Below the pieces are notes generated by a model. That model did not search any database and was not told where the DNA came from. It was given only the letters and a program-made list of their open reading frames with translations. A program made the position numbers and the translations under genes. From the NCBI RefSeq assembly GCF_053078305.1, contig NZ_CP166879.1: a stretch of DNA of 64,000 bases. One strand, given 5' to 3'. Shown here in pieces: positions 54,794 to 56,183 of this stretch (position 1 is its first letter; each line of letters opens with the position of its first letter).

Positions 54794-56183
54794 TAACGTT
54801 TTCCTTATTGATGCTATTCATTTTGGACATACAGATCACTTTTGATGATTTGCGGAATATCAACAAAAATGATTGCGGCAAATCCTATCACCTGGCGCAA
54901 TAAAAAATCACGAAAAATAAGCTGAAATAAGGACTCAAAAAACAACTAAGAGTTATTGTTTTTTCTTCGAACGGAGACGTACCTAACTTACTAATACACA
55001 ATAATTTAAAAGTCCCCACCCCTTCTCCCTGGGTGAGAAAAAATCTAATTCAGCGAATATCTGAAATGATATGTAGTTTTCTGTACAGAATCATTTCAGA
55101 TATTCGAATAAAACAACAAGGTTGATAAGTTACGATTAATTTAAATCTTATTATTTGATTAACAAAACATCAGCATTACTGCATCTTATTCTCTATATCT
55201 TTTACGCCGGGATAGATTCTTTATGGTCATTACGGGCAGGCACCATTTCATTATATTACCATTTACATTCACTCTTGTAACCCTTAAGAGTTATATAAAA
55301 GGCAATAGTTCTTGCTCATGGTAATACTGAGATCGGATTAACCGTGAGGTTAGCTATATAGAGAGAGCTCTTTGGCTTTGCGACAATTAGCTTAAGCAGC
55401 CACATTATGTTTGGCTTACCGTTGAAAGGTAGAAAGAAGAGCAAAATGGTTCACAAGGTTTCATTCCCATCTAATAGCAATTACCCCTATACATCATCCC
55501 TTAACGTACTCTGGGCTTCATGAAAATGTTATTCAAAATTAAAGATTGTAATGATTTTCATAATGTTGTTATCATTCTGCAGCAAAACAACCTAACTCAA
55601 TGATTATACTTTATTTTTTATTCGTTAAGAGTTGATGTTTTTTACAGAAAGCACTACATTCGCGCCCATTTCCCACCACAGGAAAAGCTGAAATAATCTT
55701 AAATGACTGTATTAACCCTTTTTCCCAATGTCAGCACTCTTAAATATCGTTGTTTTATTCTTATAAAAACGGCTTTTTTGACATAAAAAGTAATAGGTAC
55801 AATCATTATGCAGCATTTACAACCTTAAATCATCGCAAAAACAAAATTACACAGAATAAAACCCTGCCCATCATCTTTCGGTAAGAATTAAATTACTATA
55901 TTACCGATTAACACCAGTATGAATGTAAATTCAATTGTTATACATGTGATGAATGTCATATATTGTGCTCATCGATTGCAGGGCATCGCTATTCTTTTAG
56001 AGATACAGATATCACGCTGTTACTCTCTATATAAAGAACACATAAAGATTAGTTGTGTTACTGCAGTTGTTATGTCGCATATGGAAAGCCCATTGTTACA
56101 TCTTTAGTAAGAAATTTTTTCACTTTCAAAATTTTTACTCCAAGAAGATGGGCTGTTTTGCTGCAAGCAATTGAGTTAGTGCA
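54794..56183. promoter_or_regulatory. AT-rich 1.4-kb divergent intergenic control region
   Basis: No convincing ORF; strongly AT-rich, lying between the minus-strand tps/lipid operon and the plus-strand regulator and fimbrial operon. Confidence 0.6.
55053..55105. promoter_or_regulatory. Perfect 17-bp inverted repeat (candidate operator)
   Basis: CGAATATCTGAAATGAT-N19-ATCATTTCAGATATTCG, ~260 bp upstream of the tpsA start; no adjacent T-run, so not a typical terminator. Confidence 0.5.

Follow-up and report, generated by a model that had tools for sequence, protein, structure and literature searches.

A conserved single-copy palindrome, probably a local regulatory element, in the control region between a tpsA adhesin gene and a fimbrial operon of an Escherichia coli OI-47-type island

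Among the stem-loops of enterobacterial mRNA leaders are the 5′ stabiliser hairpin of ompA and the long, RNase III-type stems in the leaders of rnc and pnp. The palindrome described here resembles them in having about 20 stacked pairs, a small apical loop, a position upstream of a coding region and no U-tract, and in that its pairing is kept through compensating changes. It differs from them in having no sequence or Rfam relationship to them, and in being known here from DNA alone. A second set of comparisons is with the operators of adhesin genes: the inverted heptads bound by BvgA at fhaB, the TTCCT-N17-TTCCT boxes of EcpR at ecp, and the RcsB box. As with operators of LuxR/NarL-type regulators, there are inverted half-sites in front of both a TpsA-type adhesin gene and a fimbrial operon, near an orphan gene for a protein of predicted RcsB/NarL-like fold. 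Unlike the sites for BvgA, EcpR and RcsB, the half-sites of the palindrome are inverted 19 bp apart, its outer arms covary and its spacer is self-complementary. Thirdly, natural quasipalindromes in E. coli, of which thyA holds an example, are mutational hotspots at which template switching corrects one arm against the other. Like them, the palindrome is a perfect or imperfect inverted repeat with a loop, and complementary changes and single mismatches are what set its alleles apart. Here, however, the core and its spacing have been kept between genera much better than the DNA around them, and this argues for function. Finally, REP/BIME and ERIC/IRU sequences and MITEs are also intergenic hairpin-forming palindromes, but unlike them the present one is single-copy. 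It is an ordinary kind of element, previously undescribed, and on present evidence it calls for no new type of mechanism.

The window (the whole 64,000-nucleotide stretch analysed, from contig NZ_CP166879.1) is an E. coli OI-47-type island adjoining tRNA-Ser, ghrA and csg. The palindrome sits in a 1390-bp unannotated intergenic region (54794-56183) between tpsA and a gene for a 207-aa protein (Table 1). In the Sakai strain (NC_002695.2) the counterpart of this region is the unannotated gap between ECs1281 and ECs1282, at 1,348,686-1,350,075, with the palindrome at about 1,349,763-1,349,813, and no record examined has an annotated feature in it. On the minus strand tpsA is followed by tpsB and then by a long series of ACP, ketosynthase and ABC-transporter genes. 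The 207-aa gene, annotated as 'hypothetical', lies on the plus strand and heads a chaperone-usher fimbrial operon. In the window tpsA has an in-frame TAG at 52703-52705 that divides it into ORFs of 696 and 554 aa, and is probably a pseudogene in this genome. O55:H7, O157 and most of the remaining strains examined have the gene intact (1270 aa); in strain A16 IS903B truncates it. Elsewhere in the window there are gathering-level Rfam matches to the PyrC leader (9184-9233), to the sRNAs ES036 (CssrF, 18364-18406) and ES056 (28503-28594), and to a tRNA (34194-34278, annotated as tRNA-Ser in related genomes).

Table 1. Position of the palindrome and of neighbouring features in the window
Feature	Position	Strand	Remark
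tpsA, two-partner-secretion filamentous haemagglutinin-type exoprotein, ECs1282 orthologue	50981..54793	-	
Block adjoining tpsA	54794..54958	.	about 78% identity to Pseudocitrobacter; presumably promoter-proximal region and leader of tpsA
Left arm, CGAATATCTGAAATGAT	55054..55070	.	55060-55070 (TCTGAAATGAT) unchanged across all E. coli alleles and Pseudocitrobacter
Spacer, 19 nt	55071..55089	.	inner 4-bp stem (55072-55075, TGTA; 55084-55087, TACA) enclosing an 8-nt loop of variable sequence
Right arm, ATCATTTCAGATATTCG	55090..55106	.	55090-55098 (ATCATTTCA) unchanged in all alleles
Block adjoining palindrome	55107..55200	.	about 73-77% E. coli/Pseudocitrobacter identity (intergenic region overall, 55%); possible location of a promoter or more binding sites
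207-aa gene, ECs1281 orthologue, first of the fimbrial operon	56184..56807	+	predicted RcsB/NarL-like fold

The initial annotation had described a perfect 17-bp inverted repeat with a 19-nt spacer some 260 bp upstream of tpsA. All of this stands (the arms are complementary at 17 of 17 positions, the whole element is 53 bp, and 260 nt separate it from the start of tpsA at 54793), except that the coordinates given for it, 55053-55105, were 1 nt off. Its view that such a repeat is unlikely by chance is also borne out. With loops of 3 to 60 nt allowed, no perfect inverted repeat in the 64-kb window is longer, the runner-up having arms of 12 nt, and in 100 composition-preserving block shuffles of the window the longest arm was 9-15 nt, so that 17 was never attained. 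The palindrome is real and non-random. Its stem is AT-rich (30% G+C). The 17-mer occurs three times with three or fewer mismatches, where 0.16 occurrences are expected. A third half-site copy, TATCATTTCGGAT (12 of 13 positions), lies at 56213-56225 inside the 5′ end of the 207-aa gene; since its Pseudocitrobacter counterpart differs at several synonymous positions, this copy is probably there by chance. The spacer of the window allele contains a perfect 12-bp palindrome of its own, TTCTGTACAGAA at 55078-55089, which the common alleles (...CTGTACGAC...) are without. There is also a longer-range inverted repeat of 30 nt, 73% complementary (55101-55130 and 55736-55765, core GAATAAAACAAC), which encloses some 600 bp and abuts the palindrome's right arm. 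Pseudocitrobacter has no conserved counterpart of this longer-range repeat, and it is probably fortuitous.

Of 5426 complete E. coli genomes, 380 have a single match to the intergenic region, with at least 95% identity in 36 of them and 90-95% in the other 344, which are mostly O157:H7 and O55:H7. An 81-nt query round the palindrome finds the identical set of 380 genomes, one locus each, and no other site in the 5426; the second 'place' given for 23 records is presumably this palindrome again, matched on the opposite strand. In a plasmid collection there are two matching records only, a 212-kb EDL933 fragment and a chromosome-sized record of 4.9 Mb. Several identities can be set aside. A dispersed repeat, MITE or IS end is ruled out by there being one locus per genome and no target-site duplications. 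Against an invertible promoter switch like fimS, no inverted orientation occurs among the listed matches and there is no recombinase gene in the locus. Among the matches listed (50 of the 380) the intergenic query aligned as a single co-linear piece with 100% coverage, and in all 380 genomes one place covered at least 80% of it. The RfaH ops/JUMPStart element (GGCGGTAGNNTG) has no match with two or fewer mismatches inside 54794-56183. The intergenic alleles are mosaic, that of EC1515 being of the O157-type haplotype to about column 410 of the alignment and of the window type beyond, which points to recombination inside the control region.

The perfect 17-bp form is allele-specific. With the 81-nt query, 26 of the 380 genomes fall in the identity class of the window allele and have this form, and 354 match at 80-90% identity; the other genomes sampled keep 15-16 pairs. 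The arms were read from 14 genomes and 8 metagenome contigs. Allele A, that of the window (CGAATATC... / ...GATATTCG), has 17 pairs, and allele B, of THO-010 and others (AGGATGTC... / ...GACATCCG), has 16 perfect pairs. Allele C, of O157:H7 and O55:H7 (AGGACGTC...), has a single C.A mismatch (T5 to C); allele D, of E105 and Z1323HEC0399 (AGGATATC... / ...GACATCC), a single A.C mismatch (A6 opposite C12′); and allele E, of EC1515, one A.A mismatch. A core made up of the innermost 11 nt on the left and 9 nt on the right is invariant in all alleles. Alleles A and B, the latter common, have five arm differences, and four of these make up two complementary double changes, from A-T to G-C, at pairs 3/15 and 6/12. 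By simulation, the probability of two or more compensated pairs arising from five randomly placed substitutions is 0.004.

A search with the 207-aa protein led to a syntenic locus with the same gene order in Pseudocitrobacter; over the intergenic region it matches Pseudocitrobacter sp. RIT415 at 99% identity. Nucleotide identity to E. coli is 85% for tpsA, 77-82% for the fimbrial genes, 64% for the 207-aa gene and 55% for the intergenic region. Within the latter three blocks stand out: 165 nt at tpsA, about 150 nt starting with the palindrome, and about 180 nt before the 207-aa gene. The Pseudocitrobacter core, ATCTGAAATGAT-N19-(A)ATCATTTCA, is the same as that of E. coli at 20 of 20 positions and in its 19-nt spacing, and lies about as far from tpsA (some 265 nt). 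Away from the gene-proximal blocks, the palindrome is the most sharply conserved feature of the 1.39-kb region. The initial annotation would have been contradicted by lack of conservation at orthologous loci together with no effect of mutation; in Pseudocitrobacter, the only alignable orthologue, core and spacing are kept. Judging from the two genera, it is the 9-11-bp core with the small inner stem that is conserved and not the perfect 17-bp form; the outer arm of Pseudocitrobacter is unpaired. The 8-nt loops, GTTTTCTG in E. coli and ATTCCAGA in Pseudocitrobacter, are unrelated, with two of eight bases in common. Between them the inner stem has gone from TGTA/TACA in E. coli to TGTG/CACA in Pseudocitrobacter, so that both sides have changed with the pairing kept, and a flanking G-C pair has been gained.

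TpsA orthologues from 17 other genera or species (one genome per species, among them Kosakonia, Enterobacter, Mixta and Rahnella; 56-78% amino acid identity) have upstream DNA that is unalignable and has no comparable repeat, and a covariance model made from the palindrome alleles found no match in their loci. Conservation is therefore judged against Pseudocitrobacter alone. Pattern scans of metagenome and viral contigs returned OI-47 alleles and otherwise sequences with different flanks. Three metagenome contigs of the latter kind, L128 830-870 and L130 950-990 (16-bp arms) and L102 1900-1940 (12 bp), have a TCTGAAATGAT-N19-ATCATTTCA core; these are presumably chance hairpins, enriched by searching with a palindromic pattern.

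Folding predicts a strong hairpin on both strands in every allele, of −21 to −28 kcal/mol for those of E. coli (z −4.7 to −7.7) and −16 kcal/mol for Pseudocitrobacter. When eight distinct alleles are set against a 21-pair structure, 91% of cells are paired, against 24-46% with the partners slid. Changes on both sides occur at four pairs, a number equalled in 13 of 500 shuffles, and the observed covariation score was attained by no shuffle. Compensatory substitutions of the kind looked for in a structured RNA hairpin are thus present at two pairs within E. coli and at one inner-stem pair in the comparison with Pseudocitrobacter. The sample is small, with few independent events and only two lineages, and template switching could also have caused the covariation.

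A palindrome that is single-copy, forms a hairpin and is conserved with compensating changes is probably a local regulatory element. The initial annotation had named a regulator's binding site and an RNA structural element as its alternatives. The reading that we favour, with a probability of roughly 40%, is that the hairpin itself is the selected feature and that it acts as an RNA stem-loop. The palindrome would be a single-copy cis-element of the control region common to tpsA and the fimbrial operon, with selection acting on formation of a long hairpin (an outer stem of 9-17 bp, an inner stem of 4-5 bp and an 8-nt loop), which would form in a transcript crossing the region. Its role may lie in transcript stability or processing, or it may be a protein-binding hairpin. 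That the palindrome is transcribed, from which strand and to what effect, we infer. Where sequence is free to change, in the outer arm within E. coli and in the inner stem between the genera, double substitutions have kept the pairing, and retention of pairing through double changes while the loop drifts is the signature of a selected hairpin. Neither the 20-nt core nor its spacing has changed over a divergence large enough to erase most of the neighbouring sequence, and this fits sequence-specific recognition. An RNA stem-loop, possibly one bound by protein, would account both for the retention of pairing and for the invariant core, and a plain double-stranded DNA operator would not be expected to have a self-complementary spacer whose loop is free. 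Nevertheless, the invariant core fits an operator at least as well, and the outer stem is unpaired in Pseudocitrobacter.

Which strand might be transcribed can be asked of the mismatches. Those of alleles C and D are G.U wobbles if read as minus-strand RNA, whereas the inner-stem change in the common alleles (T19 opposite G34) is a wobble on the plus strand instead. The tally is 3 to 1 in favour of minus, with one case fitting neither, and is not significant. This slight lean would be to the tpsA-sense strand, on which the hairpin would lie in a long leader of the operon of tpsA, tpsB and lipid/polyketide genes. A promoter scan gave promoter-like sites at chance level, none of them convincing on either strand, and by eye the conserved blocks have no convincing −35/−10 pair common to E. 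coli and Pseudocitrobacter. In the papers and supplements searched for small RNAs, transcription start sites or small genes of EHEC there is no entry for ECs1281/ECs1282 or for coordinates 13490xx-13499xx, and no mention was found in the literature of an RNA or binding site between the two genes. As to named RNA families, Rfam 15 has no gathering-level match at the palindrome, and a permissive search gave only sub-threshold generic hairpins (mir-392 and the Lig thermometer, E 0.08-0.4).

Complementary double changes have another possible source. Template switching in natural quasipalindromes is an established mutational mechanism in E. coli and yields such changes without selection, which tells against reading them as the mark of an RNA stem-loop. 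The repeat might then be a functionless quasipalindrome, a chance or relic repeat kept or perfected by intramolecular template switching, with its covariation mutational in origin. That process would produce complementary double changes, and also arms as long and perfect as those of the window allele. Mismatched alleles persist in O157, E105 and EC1515, and the Pseudocitrobacter outer arm is unpaired. Mismatched alleles fixed in lineages as successful as O157:H7 imply that selection on perfect pairing is weak. What makes a purely mutational origin unlikely is that 20 of 20 core positions and the spacing are unchanged while the rest of the intergenic region is 55%, and the neighbouring block about 75%, identical, and that the loop has diverged freely and the inner stem has not.

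The same invariance of the core fits a double-stranded DNA operator, in which the inverted half-sites TCTGAAATGAT and ATCATTTCA[G]A would be bound by a local regulator controlling tpsA, the fimbrial operon or both. The candidate binders would be the 207-aa RcsB/NarL-like protein, GrvA or RcsB, possibly as two dimers or a tetramer. The 11 + 9-nt core and the exact 19-bp spacing are kept where the DNA around them is 55-75% identical, and conserved inverted half-sites at a fixed spacing of 19 bp are what would be looked for in an operator of the LuxR/GerE type. The position in a divergent control region is also suitable, with the gene for a regulator of LuxR-type fold 1.08 kb away, and a local regulator would be expected to have a single site. 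Both lineages that have the 207-aa gene also have the palindrome; in Kosakonia sacchari, where the divergent arrangement of the fimbrial genes and tpsA is kept, both the gene and the palindrome are missing. On the other hand, LuxR/GerE-type dimers have known palindromes that are compact (14-20 bp), and the half-site centres here are about 30 bp apart, more than the roughly 14-20 bp of a dyad for one helix-turn-helix dimer. An operator leaves unexplained the complementary double substitutions in the outer arm and the compensated inner stem, and the third half-site-like copy in the regulator gene is not conserved. Inspection of the palindrome gave no match to an RcsB box. We rate an operator as somewhat less likely than the RNA stem-loop.

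Neither Pfam nor NCBIfam gives a significant match to the 207-aa protein, and an exhaustive HMMER search places it in a small set of proteins of about 200 aa. An AlphaFold model made from the family alignment (pLDDT 82) resembles full-length RcsB, EvgA, NarL, FixJ and VpsT (Foldseek probability about 1.0, E about 1e-3), and there are weak sequence matches to RcsA, RcsB and GerE. The predicted fold is that of a receiver-like domain joined to a LuxR-type helix-turn-helix domain, making the protein a candidate local regulator; the label 'LuxR-type' in the initial annotation was a reasonable one for a protein whose model is of the RcsB/NarL/FixJ type. Remote relatives (24-33% identity) are encoded beside EAL-domain, ToxR-like and small FidL-like genes, near genes for fimbrial or YadA-type adhesins, and OI-47 bears the same module as grvA, fidL and an EAL gene. 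The protein and its relatives look like an unnamed family of adhesin regulators. Its identity to the Pseudocitrobacter protein (56184-56807 against L095 6001-6624) is 55% in amino acids and 64% in nucleotides, while the flanking genes have 82-90% amino acid identity. This much greater divergence suggests that the gene evolves fast or was replaced together with the intergenic region.

A long stable stem would also suit an intrinsic terminator or an attenuator, such as one at the end of a minus-strand small RNA or leader. In the window allele a T6 run follows 12 nt downstream on the minus strand, and further downstream on the tpsA-sense strand there is a second, GC-rich hairpin of 9 bp with CUUUUAAAUUAUU at 55013-55040 (-). 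This second hairpin is lost, and the position of the T-run is not kept, in the O157, THO-010 and Pseudocitrobacter alleles, and the stem of the palindrome is AT-rich. No T-run abuts it on either strand and a terminator scan of 54600-56300 found 0 sites, so the earlier statement that it lacks the flanking T-run of a canonical terminator is upheld. Termination is a very unlikely function for the palindrome.

Even less probable, to the point of being hard to credit, is a small ORF or leader peptide starting in the stem, either from the plus-strand ATG at 55066, which would encode MICSFLYRIISDIRIKQQG, or from a minus-strand ATG, which would give a 14-aa peptide. E. coli and Pseudocitrobacter both have ORFs in the same frame, and alleles B-E have GAGGA 8 nt before the plus-strand ATG. 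The window allele and Pseudocitrobacter have no Shine-Dalgarno sequence there, the amino acid similarity is limited to residues encoded by the core, and both the lengths (19-20 against 35 aa) and the C-termini differ. The small genes of Sakai listed from ribosome profiling (supplements) include none at the coordinates of the palindrome.

A further reading, distinctly unlikely as it stands, would combine RNA or DNA structure with regulator binding. The hairpin, as RNA or as extruded DNA, would be a recognition element constrained in both sequence and structure, through which the orphan RcsB-like regulator, or a different OI-47 factor such as GrvA, would co-ordinate two adhesin systems. One is the TpsA/TpsB exoprotein, to which the lipid/polyketide genes are linked, and the other the chaperone-usher fimbriae, and they would share a control region of 1.4 kb. 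If this were true, an EHEC O-island would contain a regulatory node not described before. OI-47 is present in essentially all O157:H7 strains and carries GrvA, an EAL-domain phosphodiesterase, a fimbrial operon and the TpsA adhesin. The palindrome of about 53 bp is a precise handle on the control of two silent adhesin systems of this EHEC island.
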